A stretch of DNA of 64,000 nt, taken from the NCBI GenBank assembly GCA_964035545.1, contig OZ037768.1, forward strand, positions 20,195,700-20,259,699, written 5' to 3'. Below the pieces are notes generated by a model. It searched no databases and was not told the DNA's origin. It saw only the letters and a list, made by a program, of their open reading frames with translations. The translations under genes were made by a program, and so were the position numbers. The DNA is from Bugula neritina (taxonomy: Eukaryota > Animalia > Bryozoa). Shown here piece after piece: positions 29,169 through 62,399 of the stretch. Position 1 is the stretch's first letter, and every line of letters begins with the position of its first letter.

Positions 29169-29957
29169 TTATTGGTTGTTACGAGCAGGCGCAGCGGTGT
29201 TAGGTACACGCAAACCTTCGAGCGCCTTTTCACCATCTTGAATAGCTTGGAGAAAGCTGTAATACAAGTGCCTCTGACCCCGATGATCGAAGTGGACCCC
29301 GTCTGGAGAGAGGCATCGCCTCAGACGAGGATCCAGCCGCCAATAAACAAGGCGATCAAAGCCGCTTGCAAGTTCAGCCAACCGCTTGTCAAACTGGTGA
29401 GCAAGTTCACAAAAGTTTGCGGGTATTTTGAAACCCTTTTCCGTTTGTTTTCTCAAGGGCACTCCGCAAAAAACAACTTCAGCTCTTGACTGTACCCTAT
29501 TAACGAGGGCCTCCGCCAACTGAGCTGGACATCGTCCTTTACCAATATCGTTTCCCCCCACATACCACTACACAAATGTGTGGGTAGTTGGTTGGAAGCT
29601 GTAATAAAAAATACAATTTATAATTGACATAAAAGCATTGCAACACACAAAACGTAACTTGGTACTAAGTTGATCAAAATTCTGATAACCTTACCGGGCA
29701 GTTTTGAACCCGCGCTCCTCCTACACCATGGAGGTGCACTGGCTGATACCAGCTCCATTTTTGTCCTTCAATGTTGTACTAAAATAAAGTTTAAAACATT
29801 GTTGGCAAAGATCTATAAATAAGGTTTATAAATTATTTCAACAGATTAATCTAAATATTGACTACCAGGTTACACTTACTTTTAAATGATAGGCTAGCCT
29901 GCGCACTAGAGAGTCGCCCACTACTACTACTTTTTTATCAGTTTGAGCTTGAGCCAT
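29169..29957 (-). pseudogene. Three-exon SGNH/GDSL hydrolase (about 196 aa) with a 1-nt frameshift in a G run
   Basis: Exons 29880-29957 (MAQAQTDKKVVVVGDSLVRRLAYHLK), 29695-29778 (...HGVGGARVQNCP) and 29169-29598 (...GGND...DGVHF). Both introns are phase-0 GT-AG. SGNH blocks I, II, III and V are all present. Exon 3 is 430 nt because of one extra G near 29554-29559; the duplicate copy is in frame there. Confidence 0.8.
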
Positions 29958-32900
29958 CTGTAAATAAGTACTTTAACCATTCACCCCAAATTTTAGGTTT
30001 TCTCCTCTCCCCCCCCCCTCCCCATCAATTTTTTCCAAAAGAGTTTTTTCTTGTAGTGGCCATATGTTTGGTTGGTGGTCCTGCGAAAGTGGTAAGTGGT
30101 CGTACAGAATGCATCATGGTAGCTCTCTAATTCATGCTCTAAGATATATTGCAAGTTAAAATGAATTTTCAAAAAGACGGAGGTCCTGCGTTGTAAACTG
30201 ATAATTTCAGTTAATTTTTTACTGTCAACTTCTATTCTAGTCTTAGGCAAGTTCATCATTAAATTCTGTCTGCATTCAATTTAGCTCTATTTAGTAAAGC
30301 TTTAACAAAGCCAATGGCAACATACAAGGAATTATTACCTGAGTTATTAACTAACCTGCTAGCCAAAGCAAATTGCTCATTGGGCAATGTGTACAACTTC
30401 CCTCCCTGGGAATATCCTTTTTAGCTGTCTGATTCCCCGCCCAAGTATTGAAACGTTGGAGCAGTAAGCTGCAGTGCCAACTCGTCAGTATGTCAGTGTT
30501 TGACAACAGGGCCTCTGCCATTTGTGATATCAAAGCACTTGAACGTTTCAGCTCACAAAAACTTTTGGGCCGGGGACAAATACACCTTATTTAAATAGGC
30601 AGCATTTACCAATTTTCGCTTGCTTTTTGATATGTTTTTTACTTCTGTACATACAGCTCTTCCAAGACCCAGTCAAAAAATTCCCTTATCAGTAGCTCGC
30701 CCTAAATCTTATCTAGCTTTAATGCAACCGGGTGTTGCTTGTCCTTTTTTCATCCCTTTTTGCATATGACGAAGAACGTGTGCAGATAATCTAAGAAGTT
30801 ATAGCTATTAGCACAAAGGGCTAACAAAATGTGATGCCTGTTGCCAACATGGTGCACTATCAGTTTTTTCGTGCGTTCAAAAAGGCATAGACTCGGCCAG
30901 ATTTTTTCAAAGCTGCTTTGTGCCGCATTTAAGACATGTTTAGAGCAGGTTTCAGCATAACACATTCTGAGCCATGCAACTTCATTTTCTACCCTCTTGT
31001 TTTCTCTTTTGGGCAAGTACTTGTATGTTTTGGTTCTGTATATATATCTGCCATTGGTATATTGACCGCTGTCATTGTTGAGTTTTTCCTGATAATAATA
31101 GCAGTTGGGTCTCCTTGGATGTATTTAATTGGTACACGCCCAGCAATGCCAGTCAAATTTGCAACATATAAAAAAAATTTGTGTTTTTTTATAGAAATGA
31201 ATACTTAGTAATTTTATAGAAGAAATACATTTTCAGAAAAGTTTGGGCAGTTTTGCTTCAAGAACCTCGGTCACAAAACATTTTTTTTCTTTCAACTCAT
31301 TTCTTTATCCTAGTTCTCAGCCTTTTGGGAAAGTGAAATGCATTTAACAACACAATTGAGTAAAATTTCTCTTCATCAAAGCAAACTGCATAAACCTTAC
31401 AGGTTAGTTGAAGACTCTGGCTCCTTTTCCAAATATAACCACAGTTGCTACAAAGTTTCAGATGAAGACGGCATCTCTTGCAAGAAAATTAGCAATGAAG
31501 TCTTGCAAAACGAAAATATGCCCTTTGGCTTCGTCAAATGTGGAATCATGACCAAAGCATAGAGCAATGAATTTTTTCTGCTGTTTGCCGATTTACTCCA
31601 CTACCAGGTATTGATAAGCCACATCTTTACTATCAATAATCCAAATCCACATAAACTCTTTGCCCAAGAGTGTGCTAGGAGACTTGACTATACTACACAC
31701 CACATTTCCATCCTCTCGATACATTCAACTTTAAACTGTTAAAACCGCTTGTCAAACTGGTGAGCAAGTTCACAAAAGTTTGCGGGTATTTTGAAACCCT
31801 TTTCCGTTTGTTTTCTCAAGGGCACTCCGCAAAAGACAACTTCAGCTCTTGACTGTACCCTATGAGCGAGAGCCTCCGCCAACTGAGCTGGACATCGTCC
31901 TTTGCCAATATCGTTTCTCCCACATACCACTACACAAATGTGTGGGTGGTTGGTTGAAAGCTGTAATAAAAAATACAATTTATAATTGACATAAAAGCAT
32001 TGCAACACACAAAACGTAACTTGGTACTAAGTTGATCAAAATTCTTATAACCTTACCGGGCAGTTTTGAACCCGCGCTCCTCCTACACCATGGAGGTGCA
32101 CTGGCTGATACCAGCTCCATTTTTTTCCTTCAATGTTGTGCTAAAATAAAGTTTAAAACATTGTTGCCTAAGATCTATAAATATGTTTTATAAACTTGTA
32201 CTGACATGTCGTACTACAGCTTTATTTTAATTTTAGTAGCATTCTAAGCACGATTCAATCTTTTTAAAATATTTCAAATCATGAAAATTCAATTTAGCAT
32301 CAAATCATTGTTTTTTCAAAAAAAACTAAGATCAGTACTAGTATATTTAATTATATTTACTTGTATATCAACCAGTGCCATTTTTGGGTTTTTCCTGATT
32401 GTTATAGCAGTTGAGTCTCCTTGAATGTATTAAATTAGGGTATGCCCAGCAATGCCAGTTCCCCTGCCAGTAGCTCGCCCTAAATCACAGCTAGTTTCAA
32501 TGCTTTTTTTCATTTTTTTTGCATATGGGGAAGAATGTGTGCAAATAATCTAAAAAGTTGTAGAGATTAGCACAAAGGGCTAACAGAATGTGATGCCTGT
32601 TGCCAACATGGTGCACTATCAGTTTTTTCGTGCGTTCAAAAAGGCATAGACTCGGCCAGATTTTTTCAAAGCTGCTTTGTGCCGCATTTAAGACATGTTT
32701 AGAGCAGGTTTCAGCATAACACATTCTGAGCTATGCAACTTCATTTTCTACCCTCTTGTTTTCTCTTTTGGGCAAGTACTTGTATGTTTTGGTTCTATAT
32801 ATATATCTGCCATTGGTATATTGACCGCTGTCATTGTTGAGTTTTTCCTAATAATAATAGCAGTTGGGTCTCCTTGAATGTATTTAATTAGAACAAGCCT

Positions 32901-33540
32901 AGCATTAGGTCTCCTTGGATGTATTTAATTGGTACACGCCCAGCAATGCCAGTCAAATTTGCAACATATAAAAAAAAATTTGTGTTTTTTTATAGAAATG
33001 AATACTTAGTAATTTTATAGAAGAAATACATTTTCAGAAAAGTTTGGGCAGTTTTGCTTCAAGAACCTCGGTCACAAAACATTTTTTTTCTTTCAGCTCA
33101 TTTCTTTATCCTAGTTCTCAGCCTTTTGGGAAAGTGAAATGCATTTAACAACACAATTGAGTAAAATTTCACTTCATCAAAGCAAACTGCATAAACCTTA
33201 CAGGTTAGTTGAAGACTCTGGCTCCTTTTCCAAATATAACCACAGTTGCTACAAAGTTTCAGATGAAGACGGCATCTCTTGCAAGAAAATTAGCAATGAA
33301 GTCTTGCAAAACGAAAATATGCCCTTTGGCTTCGTCAAATGTGGAATCATGACCAAAGCATAGAGCAATGAATTTTTCTGCTGTTGGCCGATTTGCTCCA
33401 CTACCCGGTATTGATAAGCCACATCTTTACTATCAACAATCCAAATCCACATAAACTCTTTGCCCAAGAGTGTGCTAAGAGACTTGACTATACTACACAC
33501 CACATTCCCATCCTCTCGATACATTCAACTTTAAACTGTT
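29380..33540. repeat. Recent complex tandem duplication of the SGNH-containing cassette
   Basis: 29380-29820 recurs at about 31743-32190, and 30690-31740 recurs at about 32465-33540. The 74-aa ORFs at 31338 and 33139 translate identically (period 1801 nt). Confidence 0.9.
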
Positions 33541-36500: not shown

Positions 36501-37926
36501 TCTTTCATTCTTGTGATATAAAATAACTTGTCCAAGCTAGTTACATCATTACTTGTATACCACGTGGTGTATTCATTATATGACCATGTTCACAAGGAAA
36601 ATTTGAGGGAGATATAAAATATAAATGCATCTTAAAATGTTTCAAACAGCTCTTGCTGGCAGTAAGCTTTATTCAACTTTTGCCTTGTTATTACTATAAA
36701 GAGCTACTGTTAAAAAAGATACATAGTTGAAAACCAACAAGCTGCATTTGTAAATAATATAATGCAGTGAGTATGTCGTGATGTAAACATAATGCAACTC
36801 GTGGCACACCGTTTACTCAAGCTAGTTAAATTTAAAATTGCGAAAACCCACGTCTTCTGTCCTCAAGAAATAACCAGCACTTGCATTGTGCGAGGCCTTC
36901 CAGATTTGTCTACTCGGTCTAGCTGATTCATTTTTATTGAGCTGAAATTACTGTGCAGTTAACAAGGTAGCACATTGTGTGTCATGTAGAGTTGACTCCC
37001 AATCTTATGGTTATACAATAGCCACTTGGTAAGTATAGATCACATTGACCTTTTTATTTTGATTCAGTGGCAACCAGTTTCTTTCAACTATGGAGTCATT
37101 TTGTTAGCAGTTTTTGAGAGCTAGTATGCAATACCATTCCAGCCAATCAAACTTCAACATAAACTAGAGTATTTTCAGAGCACACCTATTTCTACAACAT
37201 GGCAATCTTCGTACAGTATTTCCTGATTTACTGGCCATGCCACCTGGAACGAGAGGCCATTCTCAACCGACTAGAATGCAGTAACTTCAAATTTAGTTGA
37301 TTGCTACCCTTAGAATACAAGTTAAAAGAGCTATCAACGGATAAAGGAATTTAATATCCTAAATAGTCCTGGAGGTGTAAGCTTACTGTTGGCACCTCTT
37401 TTAGATGATATTATAATAGTATATGTGCTTTCTACAGCCTTGGTAACTGATAAAGTGTAGCACTTAATAATATTTTTCTTGATGTGCTATTGTATATGTA
37501 TGTGCTATACCACTATGCTTTGTAAGTTAAAGTCTGATATTAATGGCTTTTGGGTGAAAGAAAATGGCAGCTCAGACTCGATGCTCATTTTGCAAAATAC
37601 AAACTCATGTACAGATAATATTCCGTCAGTAACAGTATTGTATGCAGTCAGTAAAATATAATGCTTTCATTACAGTTTTGGTGGGATCAGCATTTTCCCT
37701 GTAGCTATTAAGTTGCATCACACAATATGAAAAACGTCCATCAAGTCCAATGTTTAATCACCATTTATTCTAGCATTCCAGAGAACCTTTGTATTTTACC
37801 CAACTGACCAAAACATGTATTGGAAACTCATTAGTAAAATTGTTGATGGTATTGCAGTAGCTTGAGAGCCAAGTACAGATATTTCATCCAGCAATGGTTT
37901 GAGGCTGATTAGTTTAACTTGAATAT

Positions 37927-38231
37927 TGTGGTGGTTCGTGGAACTACCAGCAGCACAACATGTAGGGTCGCGTAATTGACCCGGAACAATGGATAGCCAA
38001 TTAGCGTAGTTGATAGTTAGCAGCAATTGTAGTTTCCCGCTGCTAAGTCAGTCGAAGCTAGAGTGTGAAATAGATTAGATGTGTAACTTGTTGGAAATAA
38101 TGTATCGTGTTTTTATAATGTATAATTGTGTATAAAATATACTCGTTCACTCGACTTAGCCTGGTGCAGTTCTATACTAGATAAATAGACTCTCTGGATA
38201 GCATATCAACCCTAATCTGAAAATTATAACA
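37927..38231 (+). repeat. 5' LTR
   Basis: tgtggtggttcgtgg...aaattataaca, direct repeat of 45080-45384. Confidence 0.97.
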
Positions 38232-38232
38232 G

Positions 38233-38250
38233 TGGTGGCAGCGGTGGGAT
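38233..38250 (+). promoter_or_regulatory. Primer binding site complementary to the tRNA-Leu 3' end
   Basis: TGGTGGCAGCGGTGGGAT, 1 nt after the 5' LTR, is the reverse complement of ...AUCCCACCGCUGCCACCA, the metazoan tRNA-Leu(AAG-type) 3' end. Confidence 0.85.
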
Positions 38251-38262
38251 AGTGCATCCAAG

Positions 38263-39222
38263 ATGGAGACTGAAAATGCTGAAACTCAACCACCGGCAAT
38301 CGAAGGTGAGCGTAGAGACAATGCTGTAGAGACAATGCCTGTTAACCATGTAGTAGAGGAACGAAGGGTTCCGCGAGAACTAGTTGAATACCGCTACAGG
38401 TTAAAGGCGCCCACCTTCACGGGTGAAGAGGAGGTGGAACAATTTATCCAAGAGTTTAGCGACGTAATGGACGTCGCTCAGTGGCCCCCTAGGGTGGCCC
38501 TGCTGAAGCTTAGAATGGCATTGATGGACAAAGCCAAGCCCTATGGGCTGGGCGTAGACATTGATAATATCTTTGCTTCTCTGCGGGCCCGTTTTGGCCT
38601 CTCGACTACAGATGCCAGGGCCCGATTACAGAGGTTGCGGCGTGATCCCCGCACCCCGCTGCGGGAGCATGCCACCGCGGTCATGAAGCTGGCACAGATC
38701 GCGTACAGCGACTTGCCCCCAGTCAACCGCGAGAGGTACACCCTCGACGCTTTCATAGCATCTGTCGACGATCTGGGTCTCCACCACCAGTTTCTAGCTA
38801 GGGGAGTCACCACCGTTGAAGATGCTCTGACTGAGGGGGAAGCTTACCTCCTAGCTAACCAAATGCATAAAAGTCGCGGAAGCTCCCGCCAAGTGGAGAT
38901 AGACCGCGCAGACACGGCCGCGGGACAAGGGGAGGAAACCCCCGCCGCGGCTGCCGTGTCCCAGTTGGCGACGGCATCAAAAGTCACTCAACTGACAGAC
39001 ATGCTAGCCAAGCTGATAGCAACACTGACCCCACAAAACCCAGTGAGTACCGCCCCTGAGCCCATGCGGCCATTGGCGCCGCCACAGGGAGAAACAGTCA
39101 GTTTTTGCTGGGAGTGCGGAAATCAAGGACATTTCCGCCGATATTGTCCCTTCCTAAATCAGGGGTTAAACTACCGCGGCCCGCAGATGTTCCCACCTTC
39201 CGCGGGCCGACGAAACCTCTAG
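38263..39222 (+). CDS. gag: Gag of the Gypsy element (319 aa)
   Basis: First ATG after the PBS; capsid-like PTFTG...F...F...W region and CCHC knuckle CWECGNQGHFRRYC. Confidence 0.93.
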   Translation: METENAETQPPAIEGERRDNAVETMPVNHVVEERRVPRELVEYRYRLKAPTFTGEEEVEQFIQEFSDVMDVAQWPPRVALLKLRMALMDKAKPYGLGVDIDNIFASLRARFGLSTTDARARLQRLRRDPRTPLREHATAVMKLAQIAYSDLPPVNRERYTLDAFIASVDDLGLHHQFLARGVTTVEDALTEGEAYLLANQMHKSRGSSRQVEIDRADTAAGQGEETPAAAAVSQLATASKVTQLTDMLAKLIATLTPQNPVSTAPEPMRPLAPPQGETVSFCWECGNQGHFRRYCPFLNQGLNYRGPQMFPPSAGRRNL

Positions 39223-42200
39223 GGAAGAAGAAACGCAGGTCACCCAGACGGGCACCGCGTACTGGCAACCAACAGTGGCAACAGCCGCGACGGACCAGCA
39301 AGGGGCTTCGCCCCGCGGCTGCCTTTTCTATGCCCCTTCACAACAGATTCACAGGGCTACAAGTCCAAGAATCTGGATGGGAGCACACAAAAGTAGCTGA
39401 GAAACCAGCCTCGGCACCCCCGAGGCCTACCTATCACCGCCCCAAGAGACCCCCTTCGCGACCCAAAGCGAGGGAGGTACTCCCTGCGAGAGTCAGGCCT
39501 GAAGGGAGAGTTCAGGTGCAGCCCCATGGGAACAGCTATTTCTTGCCCGGTAAACTGGAAGGCAAAGCTGTTACTTTTCTCATTGATTCGGGCTGTACCA
39601 CGAACCTCTTAAGCCGCCAACTCTTCGACACCCTCAGTGCTAGGGTCAGGGGCGAGATGGAAGCATACGAAGGGGAATACGGCACCCTAGCTGACGGGTC
39701 GTGCCTTCCCTTCTATGGTATAATTGAGCTGACGGGACGAGTCCGCGATCAAACGATCCAAGAGACGTTCATCGTCAGTCAGCTCAAGGAGGATGCTATC
39801 CTCGGGATGCCGTTCCTTAAACGGCACGGATGTCACATAGATTTTAGCAGATCTGCAATGATGATGTCCGGGCGGGAACTCGCCTGCGTCGACAAGTTCG
39901 GCTGCCCTTTAGTGGGAGGTGTGCAAGTGGTACGCAACCGTACCATACCAGGCCGCTCCCGGGCTACCATTCACTGCAGGGTGAATAGTAGCCGGATCTC
40001 TGGACTCGGGGTGGTTGAAGGCGCGCACGAAAAGATCCAACTTGCCAGCAGTCTGAATCAGCTGACTGAGCAAGGGGAGATCTTAGTGCAGTGCGTCAAC
40101 CCCTTTACCGAGCCTATCAAGCTCCCGGCTGGGTCGATGCTGGGCCGTTTTCACTCTGTTCAAGAGGGAGACGTAGGCCCGTCGTTGGGTGATGCGACAG
40201 AGGCACCCCCTCGACACCCTATTCAAGGACGAGGGGCAGTCCCAACACATCTCCGGGAGTTATATGAAACAGCCAGTGGCGGCTGCGCGAGTAACAGGGA
40301 ACGCCAAGCTATGGCTAAGTTACTACGCGACTACGGTGATGTGTTCAGCAGCGGAGAGCATGACGTGGGACTGACTGGAATTGTCAGACACGAAATACCG
40401 CTGACTGCAGGGACAGTCCCTGTCCGGCAGCCCACACGCAGGCTGGGGCCGGAGAAAGAGAAGGAGGTTAGCCGACAAGTACGGGATCTTCTGGACCGGG
40501 GACTGATAGAGCCCGCCCATAGTGCGTGGAGCTCGCCAGTTGTACTGGTCCGGAAGAAAGACGGCAGTTGGCGGTTCTGTGTGGACTACCGCAAACTCAA
40601 TAGCGTAACCATACAGGACGCCTACCCTCTACCTCGTATTGACGAGTCATTGGACGCCCTAGCCGGCAGCAAGTACTTCAGTACGTTAGACTTGCTAAGC
40701 GGCTATTGGCAGGTTCCTCTGAGTCCCGACGCCCAAGAGAAAGCGGCGTTTATCACACGGGACGGTTTGTGGAAGTGGAAGGTGCTGCCCTTCGGGTTAA
40801 CCTCCGCCCCAGCCACCTTCCAGAGGCTGATGGAACAAGTCCTTAGCGGACTCCATTGGAAGACACTGCTGGTCTACCTCGATGATGTCATCGTAATCTC
40901 TCCAGACTTCGAGACACATGTCAGTCGTCTGCAGGAGGTTTTCGAGAGACTCCGAGGTGCCGGTCTTAAGCTCAAACCTTCCAAGTGCGCTCTGTTGCAG
41001 CCGGAGGTCAAGTACCTGGGGCACGTTGTCGGTCGAAACGGCGTGGCAACGGATCCCGAAAAGGTACGGGCAGTAGAAGACTGGGTCACCCCTCAAGACT
41101 TGACCGGACTCCGGGCTTTCTTGGGGCTGGTAGGGTATTACAGGCAATACATACCAGACTTTGCGGGCATAGCCCAGCCGTTAAACCGGCTTACCGCAAA
41201 GGGAGTGACGTGGCAGTGGACTCCAGTCGAACAAGAAGCGTTCGACCGCCTCAAGGGCTGCCTCCTAACGGCGCCCATCTTGGCCTACCCAGACCCCACT
41301 CTGGAGTACATCCTAGACACGGACGCCAGTGACCAGAATGTTGGCGCTGTGCTGTCACAAGTGCAGGAAGGCCGAGAAGTAGTAGTAGCCTACTACAGCA
41401 AGTCTCTCTCTCCCGCTGAACGAAATTACTGCACTACCCGCAAGGAGCTGCTGGCAGTAATCAAGTCAGTGAAGCACTTCAGACCATACCTATATGGCAG
41501 GAAGTTCCGGCTGCGTACGGATCATGCCTCGCTGATCTGGTTGTGCAGGAGAGCAGAGCCCTCTAGTCAGGTCGCCCGGTGGCTCGAAATCCTAGCTGAA
41601 TTCTCGTACCGGATCGAACACCGACCGGGCAAGAGACACAGCAATGCGGATGGGTTGAGCCGCCGACCTGACGGAGGTTGCAAACAGTGTCTCAACATCG
41701 AGAGGAGGGATGGAGGTCCCCCTCGATGCGAGTTGGAGACGCTGGCTCATCACGGAGTACCGTTTGACTGGGATCAAGGTCAACTCAGGCAAAGAGTTGA
41801 TGAGTCCCCGGAGGATATACAAAACCTCCGCGCCAACCCTGTACTGGCCGGTAATGTTCGAGAGCTGAGGAAGCTCCAAGAAGAGCTGCCTGGAGTCGTG
41901 GCAGACATCTACCGGGCCAAAAGGGAAGGGCGACGACCCAGCGAGGAACGCATAAGACAGGGATGCGCCGAATTCCGGCTATACTGTCAGCGTTGGGACT
42001 CGCTGCGGATCGGGCAGGATGGGTTGCTAACCATCTCTCTAGCTGCCAGCGGCAGACACCCGGAAAGGAAGAGGGTAGTCTGCCCCACAGCCATCCGCCG
42101 TGAGTTGATTTGGGATACTCACAAGCAGGCCCACGCAGGGGTCAAGCGAGTGATGTCCAAATTACGACTCCGGTGGTATTGGCCGCAGATGGAGCGTGAC

Positions 42201-43733
42201 GTCCGGCTCAGAGTCAAACAGTGTGAGATCTGCCAGGCCAGTAAGCATAGCCGCCCCCCTGGTGAAGCAGGACGGCGGAGGCTATATGCTGGTAGGCCCT
42301 GGCAAGTAGTCGCTGTAGACCTGGTCGGACCCATGCCCCTGACCCCCAGAGGCAATAATTGGATCCTAGTACTAACCGACCACTTTACTAGGTGGGCGGA
42401 TGCTCTGGCTATCCCAGATGCATCAGCCCCAACAGTGGCCAGGGCACTAGACCAACATGTATTCTGTTATTTTGGGCTTCCCGAACAGATACACTCTGAT
42501 CAAGGCGCTCAATTCCAGTCTCAACTGATGAGCGACCTTTGCCACCTCTGGGGAGTAAATCAGAGCAGGACCACCCCCTACCACCCTCAAGGTAACGGGG
42601 TGGTGGAGCGCAACAACCGGATGTTAGGTGATGCGCTCCGGAGTCTCCTCCTTGGACGAAGTCAAGAGGAATGGGATACGGTGTTGCCGCAAGTCATGCG
42701 TGCATACCGTAGCACCCCACACACCAGTACTGGTGAGACCCCAAACCTCTTGATGCTCGGGAGAGAGACTCGTGTCCCTGACCATCTCACCTATCACGTT
42801 CCAGAGCAAGATAACTCAGTCCACGAGTATGCCAGTGAACTAGTGGAACGGATGAAGGCCGCACACGAGATACTGCGTCAACAGCAGTGGAAGGTGCGGC
42901 ACGAAGATTCCGATGAACCACCCCTCTATCAAAGAGGAGATAAGGTGTGGATGGTCAATTACCGTAGGCGCCGCGGACAGGCTGATAAGCTGAAGCCTAA
43001 GTTCGTAGGCCCCTACGTGGTCGTCGAGGCTATGCCCAATCATACGTACAAGATTGAGCGCTCAGGACAGGTGTCTATCCAGAATGAGTCTCGCTTGAAA
43101 CCGTATTGGGCTAGCCCCGGCGGAGTGGGAGAAGCCCCCCCGTTGTTAGAGCCCAGGAGGCAGACAACAACGCGCGGGCGACGGCGGCATGGACCTGAAT
43201 ACGAAGTGGTCATACCGCGGGAAGAAAACTTGGTGAGAGAGGAGCGGCAGCTTCTGGCAACAGAAGCGTGTCCGCCACCGCCAAGTCTAATTCCATCACT
43301 TCCAGAAACCGAGCCGGTTCCGGAAGTGCAAACCCCCACGGAGGGAGGGGCTCCATCCGGAGAACAAGAAGAGGTGACTGCTGACGGTGAAGTAGAGACG
43401 CCATTAGAGGCCTCTACTAACGAACCGGCAAGCGTGTCACCCCCCCTAGAAAGGGGACAGCGTACGAGGCAACCCCCCGCATACTTGAAGGACTTCGTAT
43501 GTGACTGCGTTAAAAGCGGCACACATGAAAGTCTAGGGGAAAACCGTACGAGAAAAGAATCGAGCAAATGTGGGAGTTGTCAACACCACGGAAATATCAA
43601 CTTTTGTATCGGCGGAAGTAGGAACAAAATTCATCCGCCGGGTGCACAAAGTCTTAATCACGCACCCCAACCACGTTGCTCGATCTTTTCATACGCTGAT
43701 GCAGTCAAGAGTAGACGTGTTTCTAAGCAGTAG
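39105..43733 (+). CDS. pol: Pol polyprotein (protease, RT, RNase H, integrase) in the -1 frame relative to gag
   Basis: Protease LIDSGC; RT LPFGL and YLDD; RNase H DTDAS, KELLA, TDH, NADGLSR; integrase HHCC (H-x3-H...CEIC), DLVGP, SDQG, VERNN; C-terminal GPY motif. No internal stops. Confidence 0.97.
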   Translation: MLGVRKSRTFPPILSLPKSGVKLPRPADVPTFRGPTKPLGKKKRRSPRRAPRTGNQQWQQPRRTSKGLRPAAAFSMPLHNRFTGLQVQESGWEHTKVAEKPASAPPRPTYHRPKRPPSRPKAREVLPARVRPEGRVQVQPHGNSYFLPGKLEGKAVTFLIDSGCTTNLLSRQLFDTLSARVRGEMEAYEGEYGTLADGSCLPFYGIIELTGRVRDQTIQETFIVSQLKEDAILGMPFLKRHGCHIDFSRSAMMMSGRELACVDKFGCPLVGGVQVVRNRTIPGRSRATIHCRVNSSRISGLGVVEGAHEKIQLASSLNQLTEQGEILVQCVNPFTEPIKLPAGSMLGRFHSVQEGDVGPSLGDATEAPPRHPIQGRGAVPTHLRELYETASGGCASNRERQAMAKLLRDYGDVFSSGEHDVGLTGIVRHEIPLTAGTVPVRQPTRRLGPEKEKEVSRQVRDLLDRGLIEPAHSAWSSPVVLVRKKDGSWRFCVDYRKLNSVTIQDAYPLPRIDESLDALAGSKYFSTLDLLSGYWQVPLSPDAQEKAAFITRDGLWKWKVLPFGLTSAPATFQRLMEQVLSGLHWKTLLVYLDDVIVISPDFETHVSRLQEVFERLRGAGLKLKPSKCALLQPEVKYLGHVVGRNGVATDPEKVRAVEDWVTPQDLTGLRAFLGLVGYYRQYIPDFAGIAQPLNRLTAKGVTWQWTPVEQEAFDRLKGCLLTAPILAYPDPTLEYILDTDASDQNVGAVLSQVQEGREVVVAYYSKSLSPAERNYCTTRKELLAVIKSVKHFRPYLYGRKFRLRTDHASLIWLCRRAEPSSQVARWLEILAEFSYRIEHRPGKRHSNADGLSRRPDGGCKQCLNIERRDGGPPRCELETLAHHGVPFDWDQGQLRQRVDESPEDIQNLRANPVLAGNVRELRKLQEELPGVVADIYRAKREGRRPSEERIRQGCAEFRLYCQRWDSLRIGQDGLLTISLAASGRHPERKRVVCPTAIRRELIWDTHKQAHAGVKRVMSKLRLRWYWPQMERDVRLRVKQCEICQASKHSRPPGEAGRRRLYAGRPWQVVAVDLVGPMPLTPRGNNWILVLTDHFTRWADALAIPDASAPTVARALDQHVFCYFGLPEQIHSDQGAQFQSQLMSDLCHLWGVNQSRTTPYHPQGNGVVERNNRMLGDALRSLLLGRSQEEWDTVLPQVMRAYRSTPHTSTGETPNLLMLGRETRVPDHLTYHVPEQDNSVHEYASELVERMKAAHEILRQQQWKVRHEDSDEPPLYQRGDKVWMVNYRRRRGQADKLKPKFVGPYVVVEAMPNHTYKIERSGQVSIQNESRLKPYWASPGGVGEAPPLLEPRRQTTTRGRRRHGPEYEVVIPREENLVREERQLLATEACPPPPSLIPSLPETEPVPEVQTPTEGGAPSGEQEEVTADGEVETPLEASTNEPASVSPPLERGQRTRQPPAYLKDFVCDCVKSGTHESLGENRTRKESSKCGSCQHHGNINFCIGGSRNKIHPPGAQSLNHAPQPRCSIFSYADAVKSRRVSKQ

Positions 43734-43757
43734 TTCAAACCATTTCACATATTCAGT

Positions 43758-44798
43758 ATGTCTTACGACAACAGATCGTGGGGTGAGTTAACTATATCTT
43801 AATACGAAACTAGATTGCATCGCTCAGCTCTGACTCACTGAGTCAATCGAGCTGGAGATAGGTTAGTGAAATACCGTAGTAAGAACTTAGTTTGACTTAG
43901 AGATTTTTATAATCTCATTGCAATACGGTTCTATCTGACTATTCACTATCATTAATCTCTACGAGGTAACTGAATGAGGAGTTGCCAAGCTGTTCAAGCT
44001 GACAACACAGCAGTGTACTGTACTAACACTGTTGAAACTTTTTCAGATTACACTCGACCCGCTACAACCAGGGTACGGGATAGAACACTTCCCGCTCCGT
44101 ATCCGGAGGACTATGCTAGTGGTGACCGGCCTGAGCCACTACGCCGCCGTTGGCGGTGGGTGTCTCCACAAACCGAAGAAGAAATAGAAACAGCCTGGGG
44201 GTCCAGAGGACGGACGAGATGCCAGATCTGTGGTGAAGATTGCGCCTCTCACCGCTCCCTTAAACTACACGTCAATGCTCATCTCCTACTGACCTTCTGC
44301 CCCTGCGGGTACAATGATGTGTATCCCTACCCCGTCACCAGACACAGAGCGGCGGGCTGTTTCCCTGGAGAAAACTATGTGGTCGACGCTAAGCTGTACC
44401 CGGAGTTCCTCACGTATATACGACCTCTGGTAAAGAAGGCCATGCTATTAGCCGTTCTATCCTCGGGGTTCCAACGTGTGTTAGACAACGCCCGCCAACA
44501 ATCCCCGCTGGTGTCTGACCGCCCTCCAATTACCTACACCCCCGAGGAAACTACATATCCAGAAGAAGGAGAGATCTCCCCTACCCCGGCGAAGAGACGG
44601 ACACCGTCCCCAGACCCAGTACGACTAGCTACAGTAGAAGAACGCCTCCTACGATTACAAGAAGAGTTCACCCAGCTGGCGCCAGATCTACTCAACACTA
44701 CCACAGGACTCTTCCAGCTGAAGGGATCCGTATGCCGTATGAAACGGAAACTGCGTACATGCCAAGCCAAGCACCGGCGTGCCCAACAAGGACTCTAG
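43758..44798 (+). CDS. Third gene of the Gypsy element: predicted spliced zinc-finger/coiled-coil protein (not env)
   Basis: Micro-exon 43758-43782 (MSYDNRSW plus G), donor GTGAGT at 43783, branch point TACTAAC 44021-44027, acceptor ctttttcag ending 44046, exon 44047-44798 in frame (258 aa). C-x2-C-x12-H-x3-H followed by C-x-C-x12-H-x4-C. Confidence 0.72.
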
Positions 44799-45079
44799 TA
44801 TGCTACCCAGAATACTCCACATTTGGTGAAGAACCAAACTCGTGTAAATGCTTAACTGCTAGACAGGTTATTCCTTGTCTAATACCACAGCTAGCTAGTA
44901 TTCCTCGTCTATCTACAGCTGGCCAATTGTATACAACGGATCGTTATAACGACTCTGTGTATTATTATGTCTCTTCCTGTATATTATGTATTATTTTTGT
45001 CCACTGATGTATGCAATTACTACTGAATGTTTTTTTTTATATATGTATCAGAAAGATGGCTTTCTGCTGGTGGGGGCGG

Positions 45080-45384
45080 TGTGGTGGTTCGTGGAACTAC
45101 CAGCAGCACAACATGTAGGGTCGCGTAATTGACCCGGAACAATGGATAGCCAATTAGCGTAGTTGATAGTTAGCAGCAATTGTAGTTTCCCGCTGCTAAG
45201 TCAGTCGAAGCTAGAGTGTGAAATAGATTAGATGTGTAACTTGTTGGAAATAATGTATCGTGTTTTTATAATGTATAATTGTGTATAAAATATACTCGTT
45301 CACTCGACTTAGCCTGGTGCAGTTCTATACTAGATAAATAGACTCTCTGGATAGCATATCAACCCTAATCTGAAAATTATAACA
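45080..45384 (+). repeat. 3' LTR
   Basis: Direct repeat of the 5' LTR, preceded by the G-rich PPT and followed by the ATAT TSD. Confidence 0.97.
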
Positions 45385-45560
45385 ATATTACTTACAGGCG
45401 TGGCAAATTGCATAAAACATTACTTCACAGTTAAAAAAGCCTAGAGTCTAAACTCTAAAATATTATATTGTTCCATGGCTGATGTCATTATAAATTAGTA
45501 GAATAATCGTGCTGTTTTGCTACGTAAATCGTATGCAAGAAAGGGTTATCAACATGATAT

Positions 45561-52374: not shown

Positions 52375-53156
52375 ATTACCTAAGATTTTATCAAGCTTGA
52401 GGGAAATATTTTTTGCATTGGTAAGTGTTTTATATTCAGTTTAGTCTTTGTTAAACTGGTATTTTCAACTTATGAGCTATATGTATTGCTTGCTTTGTTG
52501 ATGTAGAACAAATATGTTCCTATACTGTCAGAGTTTACTAGTTGTTGTACACACTATTTTAAAGAATGTACAATAGAAATAAAGTTTCTTCTACGCTATG
52601 TTATGAAGTATAGACAAAAGAGCCACGTTTCAATAAAATAAGGTTACACTTAAACCTATACTGTATGTAGCTTACTGGTAGTTAGTAAGCAATGAAAGCG
52701 TGAGAATTTATCGCGAGAGAATAACTCCTAAGAACTGATCACGCGGGTAATAGTGATAGCCTATGTTTTAAAATATCAAAATGTCCATAGATGTCCTCGG
52801 CGATGGTAATAAATCACAGTCTACAACAATACCGAATTTGTGATTATTTACTATTACATTACTATTACCATTAGTATTACTTGGAGTTCATGTAAAATAA
52901 TTTACTTCAGATTTCAGGTTCGAGTAACTTGAATTTTTATTTTGATTCAACTATTGAATTTGATAAATGATATCAATATATGAATAATTTACTGCAGCTA
53001 TAGGTATTAAACATTTATATTTAAATTCTTACTAAGTATAACCATAGGACTAGGTACGTGTTTAAATTTTATCATTAATCATTAAATTTAATGTTTAATG
53101 ATGATCATCAGATCATAATCTTAATCTAAACACTAAGAATAAGTTATTAGACACAA

Positions 53157-54485
53157 GACTGGAAAACAGCAAACATTGTACCGATCTTCAAGAAAGGAAG
53201 TCGTACAGACCCGCTGAATTACAGGCCAATATCACTCACTTCTATCATATCCAAAATCTTCGAGCATATCGTATCACATAATATCAACTGTTTCCTCGAA
53301 TCAAATGACCTGTTTTATCCACACCAACATGGCTTCAGGACAAATCATGGCTGCGATACTCAGTTGCTGAATACCGTGAGTGAATTTATAGATTTTTTCG
53401 ACGAAATGATACCGGTTGACCTCGCTGTCTTGGATTTTTCAAAGGCCTTTGACGTTGTGTCGCACCATAAACTACAGGTTAAACTGCTAAATATCGGAAT
53501 AGCTGATAAAACTGTCAAGTGGATTTTTTCATGGCTTCAGAGCCGTCTTCTTTCAGTCTGTGTCAACAACGTCAAATCGGCCACTAGACATGTGACCTCA
53601 GGAGTGCCCCAAGGCAGTGTATTAGGACCATTGTTATTTAATGTGTACATAAATGACATGCACTCTGTGGTAGCCAACAGCAAGCTTAAACTATATGCAG
53701 ATGATTCCTTGTTGTACAAACCAATCACAACACCTGCTGATTCTAGTTTATTTCAGAATGACTTAGACCATCTTATAACTTGGGCAGACAGTTCTCAGAT
53801 GAAGTTCAATATAAATAAATGTGAGCATATGACAATTCAACGCTCCACTGTAAATCCTCTAGTGTCTCAATACAGCATGAATAATGACCCCTTACAATGT
53901 GTTGACAAAGTATTATACCTTGGTGTCACGATTGATAATAAACTGTCATTCGATCAACATATAATAAACATTTGCTCAAAAGCTAATAAATTATTACACA
54001 TGCTGATGCGCTGTCTAAAAAAGGCTAAAAGTAAAACCAGAGCCATAGCTTATAAAACAGTCTGTCGCCCTATACTAGAATTTGCGACCCACACCTGGTC
54101 TCCATTTAAATTGAAAAACATCAACATCATAGAAGGTATAAATAGAAAAGCCTTCAGGTGGGCATTCTGTAAGAGAAAACGAGATCATATAACTGAGCTC
54201 ATGACAAATTCTAATTGGGATAGCCTTGCACAAAGACGTGATAATGCAGACCAAAAAATGTACTTTCGTATGCTTTCTGGTAGTGCCGCTATAGACCAAG
54301 ACCGGTTCTCCCTTCATTTTGCAGAGTCTCACAATACCAGACATGGTGCTATTAAGGGCAATATCAATACCAAAACTGCCAAACATTCATATAAACATCG
54401 CATCCATAAACTTTTCTAATGATTCTAGCTGCTTTGCCTAACTGATTATAAGCACTTTACACCGACATATTTATTTATTTATTTG

Positions 54486-56292: not shown

Positions 56293-61118
<4,826 letters not shown>

Positions 61119-62399
61119 TAGCGTGGCTAGTACCTGTAGAATATAGCTTATCTTGCTGAATTTCAGAGTTGTCTTCTTTGTAGTTTCTGATAAGTGTAGG
61201 AAAACTGTATATAAATCTCAGTGATTGAGAGTCCATTAGCCTATATATGCAGTCTGGAAGTTATTTCAATTGATTTTGTCCAAATTAAAAAAAATGATGG
61301 TATTTGAATTATTTGTTCATCGTGATAATTTCTTCAGCATTCAATTTGTTCAATCAAAATTTAAATAGTCTGGCAGAAAAATGCCAATTTTTGACTTAGG
61401 TTCGCAACCCCGGATAAAGTTTTTTTCTCTTCTGATTATTCAAATATAGGGTCTAGGTAAATGTTTCCAGGTGGGTGTGGACTTCTTACCCTTGAGCATT
61501 TTGAGAAATTCAAGATGGCCACCAGGCACCAAGCGATTTTTTCTAATTCAAATGCACCTACCCATTGGGGCTAAATTTAGGGTTCCAATGCTTTGAAATC
61601 TTTAGAAATCAATATAATAAAGATGCATGTGCCTTTATCATATGTATTATTGAGTAATAGGTAAATGATACCCAATGGTAACTAAGCTAAGCCTTAATCA
61701 TTCATTTTTTCAAGTTTAACCTAGCCTTGCCGTGTTTATAATTTCCTTGCATCTCTGCATCAGTTTGTTCTAACTTCATGAAAATTTACTATATGGTGTG
61801 ATTTTATATGCTGATTACAAATATGTCCACCAAATAAAGCTGAAAGGGGTTCTGCAAACTTAAAATGCAACGTCATTGCCATATGAGCTAAATAGCAATT
61901 TATTTCCAACTGGCATGCCTATCGAAAAGGTTTGTTGAGCTGCCAACTAAATAGTTATTTTCAGTTTTAAAATTTAGCTATGTTTTTTAAAGTTATAAAA
62001 AGAGGTCAACAACCTTAATAACACAGCACCATGGCTTCTTAACATAATTTAATTGCTTTATTATTGACACATCATTTATCTAAATATTGACATTTTTGCT
62101 TTCGAAAACTATTTCTACAATCAGCACATTTCACTTTTCCTCTAAAAGCATTTGTAAACAGTTTTTTATGAATGAAAATGTATTTCATGCTGAGGGAAGT
62201 AATACATCTATTAGAACAGTGGTTCCCTACCTTTTTCATACCAATCCCCTTTCATTAACGTTTACTATTAATTTCTCCCTTTTTAATGACCTATGTTGGG
62301 TGCGCTGGAACACTAACAGCTGAAAGTGATTTGGTAGAAGTAGTTAATTCTACTTTTGGTGATTTCTCCAAAATGCCAAATAGAAAAAGTTTCTCCATA

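Follow-up and report, generated by a model that had tools for sequence, protein, structure and literature searches.

The 64,000-nucleotide stretch of the Bugula neritina genome analysed here (referred to as the window) contains a complete Ty3/Gypsy LTR retrotransposon (Metaviridae) with a third gene, ORF3, which is under selection and is likely made by splicing the first 14 codons of gag to an exon located after pol. The element is assigned to this group by its LTRs, primer-binding site, gag and PR-RT-RH-IN order, all of which are present (Table 1). Since the two LTRs are identical, the insertion was regarded as recent. The primer-binding site is presumably of the tRNA-Leu type, and the pol stop codon is at 43731-43733. 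The G+C content was 56% in the coding parts, 38% in the segment before ORF3 and 33-36% in the flanks. No env family was found for the element by Pfam.

Table 1 Features of the Gypsy element in the window and of related loci
Feature	Position	Strand	Remarks
Complete Gypsy element	37927-45384	+	LTRs, PBS, gag, pol, ORF3, PPT
5' LTR	37927..38231	+	305 nt, TG...CA, identical to 3' LTR
3' LTR	45080..45384	+	305 nt, identical to 5' LTR
ATAT target-site duplication	37923-37926 and 45385-45388		Flanks both LTRs
Primer-binding site (PBS)	38233..38250	+	Near-identical PBS in related locus L004
gag	38263..39222	+	319 aa, CCHC knuckle
Gag leader, likely first coding exon of ORF3	38263..38305	+	14 codons + 1 nt; junction seen on sister protein P0018
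Predicted splice donor GTGAGC inside gag	38306..38311	+	Phase 1, E-G-E codons; kept in gag relatives
pol	39060..43733	+	PR-RT-RH-IN, Tf2-like SH3; intact; overlaps gag in another frame
Second TACTAAC, pyrimidine tract and TAG, candidate extra acceptor	43415..43449	+	Phase 1 in pol frame
Micro-exon of the earlier note	43757..43782	+	ATG 43758; use as exon doubtful
Conserved A+T-rich non-coding segment, candidate cis-element	43783..44046	+	264 nt; contains the second donor (43783); last part of the predicted large intron
Branch point TACTAAC	44021..44027	+	Mostly within loop of predicted hairpin
Pyrimidine tract and acceptor AG	44036..44046	+	Phase 1
ORF3 exon	44047..44798	+	250 codons
Compact double-zinc domain (C2H2 + CxC-H-C)	44127..44510	+	aa 28-155; modelled, ligands kept
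C-terminal long helix (coiled-coil-like) and Arg-rich tail	44625..44777	+	aa 194-244
Polypurine-tract (PPT) position, G-rich	45069..45079	+	
Gypsy elements with zinc domain and C-terminal helix fused in frame to Pol	L001 1694-6925; L002 980-6259		
Separate zinc-finger ORF after integrase, behind acceptor-like site	L004 5500-6449		E 2e-12; decayed copy
Separate zinc-finger ORF after integrase, behind acceptor-like site	L010 4390-4967		Weak, distant match, E 0.014

An earlier note on this DNA had described ORF3 as a non-env third gene, and the comparison with other sequences bore this out. The exon is open for the 250 codons given there, from the acceptor to the stop codon at 44796-44798. With its 250-residue product, 72 of 450 candidates were matched at E<=0.01 (48-95% identity), and 104 cluster representatives were collected with identity down to about 26-30%. 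The closest named relative was P0183 of Bugula neritina, a C-terminal piece with 61% identity over 48% of the query. Eight zinc ligands were kept in 88-100% of the aligned close relatives, and in a deep alignment of 60 sequences seven of the eight were kept in at least 90%. In run X2, whose variants are contig variants and not alleles, 19 substitutions at a share of at least 12% fell in the ORF3 exon, and 15 of them were synonymous. The resulting pN/pS was 0.09 (P 2e-6; with transitions weighted, about 2e-5). On this evidence ORF3 is a genuine gene under selection. For each of eight ORF3 relatives, the longest contig had exactly the length of that of a gag relative, which was taken as an indirect sign of linkage. 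No ORF3 locus was found in the metagenome, viral and prokaryote contigs scanned, and an integrase scan of the viral contigs found none either.

The ORF3 protein contains the zinc motifs C59-x2-C62-x12-H75-x3-H79 and C85-x-C87-x12-H100-x4-C105. The first had been called a canonical C2H2 finger; its spacing (C-x2-C-x12-H-x3-H) is canonical, but its Pfam score was under the cut-off (E 0.12). AlphaFold modelling based on 83 sequences placed both motifs in a single compact domain of 128 residues (pLDDT 95.6, pTM 0.87), and the model of the full protein showed disordered linkers and a 53-residue C-terminal helix beside the zinc domain. This helix is the best-kept part of ORF3 and ends in the Arg-rich tail, in which K233, R234, R237 and R244 were basic in 88-95% of relatives. 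Among the basic motifs pointed out earlier, RRRWRW was partly conserved, but PAKRR was rejected as a conserved nuclear localisation signal because its RR residues were aligned in only 2 of 44 relatives. The top 19-residue hydropathy was 1.24, so there is no transmembrane helix, and the absence of a signal peptide was also upheld. Patterns of the NES/CRM1 type matched non-specifically, as any amphipathic helix would. The distant members share a layout of variable start, zinc domain, Pro/Arg-rich linker and terminal helix.

Searches for known domains and folds gave little. Nothing over the Pfam cut-off was found for ORF3 or 45 aligned members, nor for 48 further relatives, bar weak C2H2/UBR matches in three of them. 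None of 48,161 PDB chains reached Z 5 for the zinc domain, and the best meaningful rows were tandem C2H2 fingers with Z<=3.7 over 50-57 residues. The PDB sequence, Foldseek PDB/BFVD and VIA-wide searches returned no clear match (Foldseek E>0.5), which does not prove a new fold. Structural matches of the full-length protein were generic coils at Z about 5, and its Atlas neighbours were generic C2H2 alone.

The splice signals had been located correctly. Downstream of the TACTAAC branch point, the acceptor at 44045-44046 is the first AG to occur, and the donor AAG/GTGAGC after 38305 is in phase 1 relative to the start codon of gag at 38263. The chance of TACTAAC in the 23-nt slot before a given AG is ~0.0025, and by a crude U1 score both this donor and the second one at 43783 ranked 14th or better among 436 GT sites, which is not outstanding alone. 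As the branch point is the only signal improbable by chance on sequence, the case for splicing rests on comparison. Direct support came from P0018, a protein of a sister family. Its first 14 residues are identical to the N-terminus of the gag proteins P0244/P0312 and are followed by D-H-T-R, the residues found after the acceptor in unspliced relatives, so that the cut coincides exactly with the predicted donor and acceptor of the window element. P0018 was the sole gag-leader/ORF3 join among 191 family proteins tested (score 73 vs 39 for the next). A chance DNA deletion was judged unlikely as its origin, since both breakpoints fall at the predicted donor and acceptor. The P0018 contig is 5320 nt long, which exceeds the predicted spliced RNA; it may therefore be a genomic retrocopy rather than RNA. 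Splicing would retain both PBS and PPT, and a retrocopied spliced RNA of the element would be 1717 nt.

The splice signals are also conserved in the sister families, as the earlier note had asked to be seen. Of 120 gag relatives, 59 extend to the N-terminus, and in these the residues encoded at the donor were kept at 88-100% (E14 in 51/58, G15 in 52/59 and E16 in 59/59), while the neighbouring residues 8-13 and 17-21 were kept only at 34-61%. E-G-E was retained in two leader lengths, including a subgroup with a shorter leader. A YAG acceptor in phase 1 calls for S/L followed by D/G, and all 12 aligned unspliced relatives have this pair at the place of the acceptor; six further relatives start downstream of it. 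By analogy with these families, the RNA of the window copy is very probably spliced from 38305 to 44047, which would remove a 5.7-kb intron bearing gag-pol. RNA run X1 (20 contigs, DNA carry-over possible) touched ORF3 once, at 44195-44413, outside the junction region, and the predicted joint was absent among the 15 listed of its 51 joints.

The segment between the second donor and the ORF3 acceptor is conserved although non-coding. Against two 51%-identical families, whose called ORFs run into 43783-44046 and whose back-translation gives upper bounds, the best-case fraction of matched bases was 0.81, while the zinc domain reached 0.77-0.78 and the coding linkers 0.65-0.68. X2 had no substitution in 43872-44046, where the synonymous rate would predict 13.7, whereas the first 71 nt after 43800 (43801-43871) had six variants, a neutral rate. 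On sequence grounds, a cis-acting role of the segment in export, packaging, splice control or as an enhancer is likely. The 264-nt segment folds at z -2.6, and 43530-44046, a window chosen after a scan, folds at z -6.65. However, windows in gag-pol also fold, at z -2.5 to -9.7 (-3.4 to -9.7 in 517-nt windows of 38930-43946, 15 shuffles each), which weakened the 43530-44046 fold as a specific response element, and four of the five variants at its paired positions break the predicted pair. The LTR, ORF3 and 3' windows do not fold beyond shuffles (z -1.9 to +2.7), and the strongly folding gag-pol part corresponds to the intron of the predicted spliced RNA. The matching regions of L001, L004, L005 and L010 were unstructured, and no match was found in Rfam.

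The zinc domain was also found in other elements. An integrase scan gave 16 loci (L001-L016), on which the zinc-domain profile was then run. In an integrase tree of 14 rows without named-clade reference sequences, the window element grouped with L001-L005 and L014 (support 83/91). In L001 and L002 (integrase core 74% identical) the zinc domain lies inside the Pol ORF of 1744 or 1760 aa (E 1e-17), at aa 1555-1646 of the former, a fusion that the earlier note had missed. These two loci are near-identical copies and were thus counted as one fused lineage. Inside their Pol frame there is an intron-like A+T-rich patch of 39-45 nt with phase-1 ends and an acceptor-like site. L004 and L010 have a separate ORF instead (Table 1). 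The remaining 12 of the 16 loci gave no credible zinc-domain match, several being too short: L006, L008, L009, L011 and L013, at 39-46% in integrase, and L005, with about 230 nt available after pol, had no match, and L003, L007, L012 and L014-L016 were negative or too short. Three or more lineages, whose Pol identity is around 55%, thus have the zinc domain after integrase. It is also present in NCBI gene models from Watersipora subatra and Bugula neritina (P0090/P0179, P0136, P0313 and P0183), twice in P0179 and P0313, possibly through capture by the host. P0046, P0196 and P0311 are apparent internal-deletion derivatives, which join a pol-tail-like start to mid-ORF3, gag to RNase H and gag to integrase.

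A precedent for a regulator of this kind is CERV of the C. elegans Gypsy element Cer1. According to PMC10309623, CERV is made from a spliced RNA sharing gag exons and is required for export of the genomic RNA. Like ORF3, it is a non-env product of a Gypsy element, from a spliced RNA sharing the gag start, with a Cys-rich zinc motif, a leucine-zipper-like helix and a basic NLS-like motif; the Cer1 genomic RNA also retains working splice sites (PMC10309623), as would be required of the element here. CERV differs in that it comprises 517 aa from five exons, has a loop of the C4 type, carries a G-protein-like domain and is without an obvious homologue outside nematodes (PMC10309623). ORF3 has ~264 aa, two exons and a C2H2+C2HC domain that also occurs fused to Pol, and is set apart from CERV by this description. 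Its models, with one zinc domain and one helix in the 250-aa exon, lack the H-M-G layout with a G-protein-like domain, while the joining of 5' gag codons to ORF3 was seen in the sister-family protein P0018.

Our best reading, held tentatively, is that ORF3 is a nuclear regulator of the element's RNA with a Rev/CERV-like role in export, which was put first because ORF3 shares the logic of CERV and has suitable parts. The earlier note had also read it as a nuclear regulator, which fits the anatomy. Since the gag donor and the post-pol acceptor are both conserved, the element must balance spliced and unspliced RNA. In the proposed mechanism, the spliced RNA with the gag leader and ORF3 would be exported first and make ORF3, which would enter the nucleus via its basic tail and oligomerise via its helix, both being candidate roles. 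It would then bind a cis-element found only in the unspliced RNA, for which 43783-44046 is the candidate, so that the genomic RNA could avoid being spliced and leave the nucleus in full-length form, to supply Gag, Gag-Pol and packaging. The lack of a transmembrane helix, the basic tail, the conserved intronic segment and the CERV precedent fit a role on RNA. Several observations speak against it: run X1, which leaves the junction region uncovered, gave no spliced read of the window copy; the nearest folds, at only Z<=3.7 over about 50-57 residues, are DNA-binding tandem C2H2 fingers; the fusion of the zinc domain to Pol in L001/L002 would suit a chromatin or integration role; and strong folding is shared by the rest of gag-pol, while the first 71 nt after 43800 vary neutrally.

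Appreciably less likely, ORF3 would be spliced in the same way but act on DNA, as a Tas/Tax-like transactivator or anti-silencer on the LTR or the conserved internal segment. The best structural neighbours are DNA-bound tandem C2H2 fingers (Kaiso with Z 3.7, rmsd 3.0 and 57 aligned residues; SALL4 with Z 3.5), but all these matches are under Z 4 with Foldseek E>0.5, and the model packs both fingers in one helical domain instead of an extended array. Fingers combined with a coil would be appropriate for a protein that binds DNA as a dimer, an enhancer function of the conserved non-coding segment is conceivable, and bryozoan gene models hold one or two copies of the zinc domain. However, such a transactivator would leave the retention of the 5.7-kb intron unsolved.

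A third reading, which we consider rather unlikely, starts from the chromodomain of chromoviruses, an extra domain at the C-terminus of integrase. The chromodomain is unrelated to the zinc domain, but both follow integrase, and the zinc domain would likewise be an integration or chromatin tether, fused to integrase in some lineages and made as a separate spliced protein here. Its occurrence in the Pol frame of L001/L002 and the position of the window's second ATG and donor in the pol frame agree with such a tether. However, the A+T-rich patch and phase-1 acceptor-like site lie at the matching place in L001/L002, which may therefore splice too, and the domain is in a separate ORF in L004. In the window, unlike the case of the chromodomain, a stop and a predicted intron lie between pol and the domain, and the pol stop had no variant at a share of at least 12% in X2. 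Furthermore, a protein with only 14 Gag residues lacks an evident route into particles. The Rev/CERV-like role was therefore ranked before the transactivator or anti-silencer, and the latter before the tether.

The earlier note had proposed a second start for ORF3, from a micro-exon with its own ATG, giving a product of 258 aa. The signals are there: the donor GGG/GTGAGT after 43782 is in phase 1 from the ATG at 43758, and an upstream acceptor ATTCAG ends at 43756. It is nevertheless improbable that the 258-aa form, or ORF3 from an internal promoter, is the main product. GTGAGT is a perfect donor, P0024 starts with V-S-Y within a few nt of it, and 43734-43800 had no variant in X2 against 5.2 expected. 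However, the donor is predicted to pair with 43739-43746 (P about 1), which would also account for its conservation, and two X2 contigs are without the donor GT (loose end at 43806). The micro-exon leader was found in none of the 15 family proteins that reach the acceptor, and no junction supporting it was seen. Being 26 nt long, the micro-exon also shifts the frame between the gag donor and ORF3, and the 258-aa form therefore depends on an ATG of its own. The ATG at 43758 and the donor at 43783 lie 24 and 49 nt beyond the pol stop and in frame with pol, an arrangement that echoes the Pol-fused relatives. The 333 nt from the candidate acceptor at 43449 to the donor at 43783 hold a Cys-rich pol tail, the pol stop and the ATG at 43758, and a larger exon starting at that acceptor may have the micro-exon as its last part. 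Finally, the idea that ORF3 is a captured and decaying sequence with chance splice-like motifs, to which the unremarkable donor scores and the lack of spliced reads from the window copy would lend themselves, is refuted by the selection data, and it also conflicts with the kept zinc ligands, the P0018 junction and the zinc domain after integrase in distant elements.

With the Rev/CERV-like reading retained, other known systems were compared. The retroviral Rev/Rex/Rec and Tat/Tax/Tas proteins are small regulators from spliced RNA with an oligomerising helix. Rev (described in PMC10309623) is a small regulator with a response element in a retained intron and an Arg-rich motif, and ORF3 resembles it in its Arg-rich tail, with four conserved basic positions, which may bind RNA, while 43783-44046 is a candidate response element. 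It differs from the Rev and Tat types in having no sequence or fold match among them in PDB or BFVD, and this element is without env. In errantiviruses env is expressed by a splice from the 5' end. PMC3383448 places errantivirus env as ORF3 between pol and the 3' LTR, the position of ORF3 here, but the latter has neither signal peptide nor transmembrane helix and is a zinc-finger protein, not a fusogen. The MDG1 group has non-env accessory ORFs, sometimes after pol, among which sORF2 is a transmembrane fusogen-like protein of 63-107 aa and sORF1 a predicted helix-turn-helix protein (PMC11952523); ORF3 differs from both.

The earlier note had not recognised a described Gypsy ORF3 of this kind. 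This holds for the protein family, of which no description was found in the literature searched (a largely open-access scope, without Repbase, Dfam and GyDB), including PMC8556966, PMC6238403, PMC13326412, PMC3383448 and PMC11952523. The kind of gene is known, however, from the CERV precedent (PMC10309623). Gypsy elements are generally regarded as gag-pol units that may or may not carry env, and CERV is the one tested spliced Gypsy regulator in the literature searched. If the reading is true, a second, unrelated and widespread family would mean that retrovirus-like control over unspliced RNA has evolved on more than one occasion, earlier than retroviruses or alongside them. ORF3 offers a small, confidently modelled domain together with a candidate cis-element, and would represent an accessory domain that alternates between being fused to Pol and being encoded by a separate spliced gene. 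A wider picture is possible, if doubtful: a bryozoan and marine-invertebrate clade of 'complex' Gypsy elements with the double-zinc domain, a Rev-like switch independent of retroviruses and CERV, integrase-fused and gag-leader-spliced forms changing into each other, ORF3-only retrocopies and host uptake. As part of this picture, ORF3-only retrocopies of 1.7 kb could perhaps act in trans.

Other features of the window lie apart from the element. At 53151-54419 (+) there is an open reverse transcriptase piece of 422 codons (RVT_1, E 7e-31), which looks like part of a non-LTR element. Nested duplications of 170-300 nt, spaced by about 1.8 and 2.4 kb and 94-99% identical, occur at 29380-33540, and a 132-codon ORF beside them (29169-29567, -) had no Pfam match. 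An exon-like stretch at 60816-61121 (+) may encode something like an ion-channel pore segment and is probably part of a host gene.
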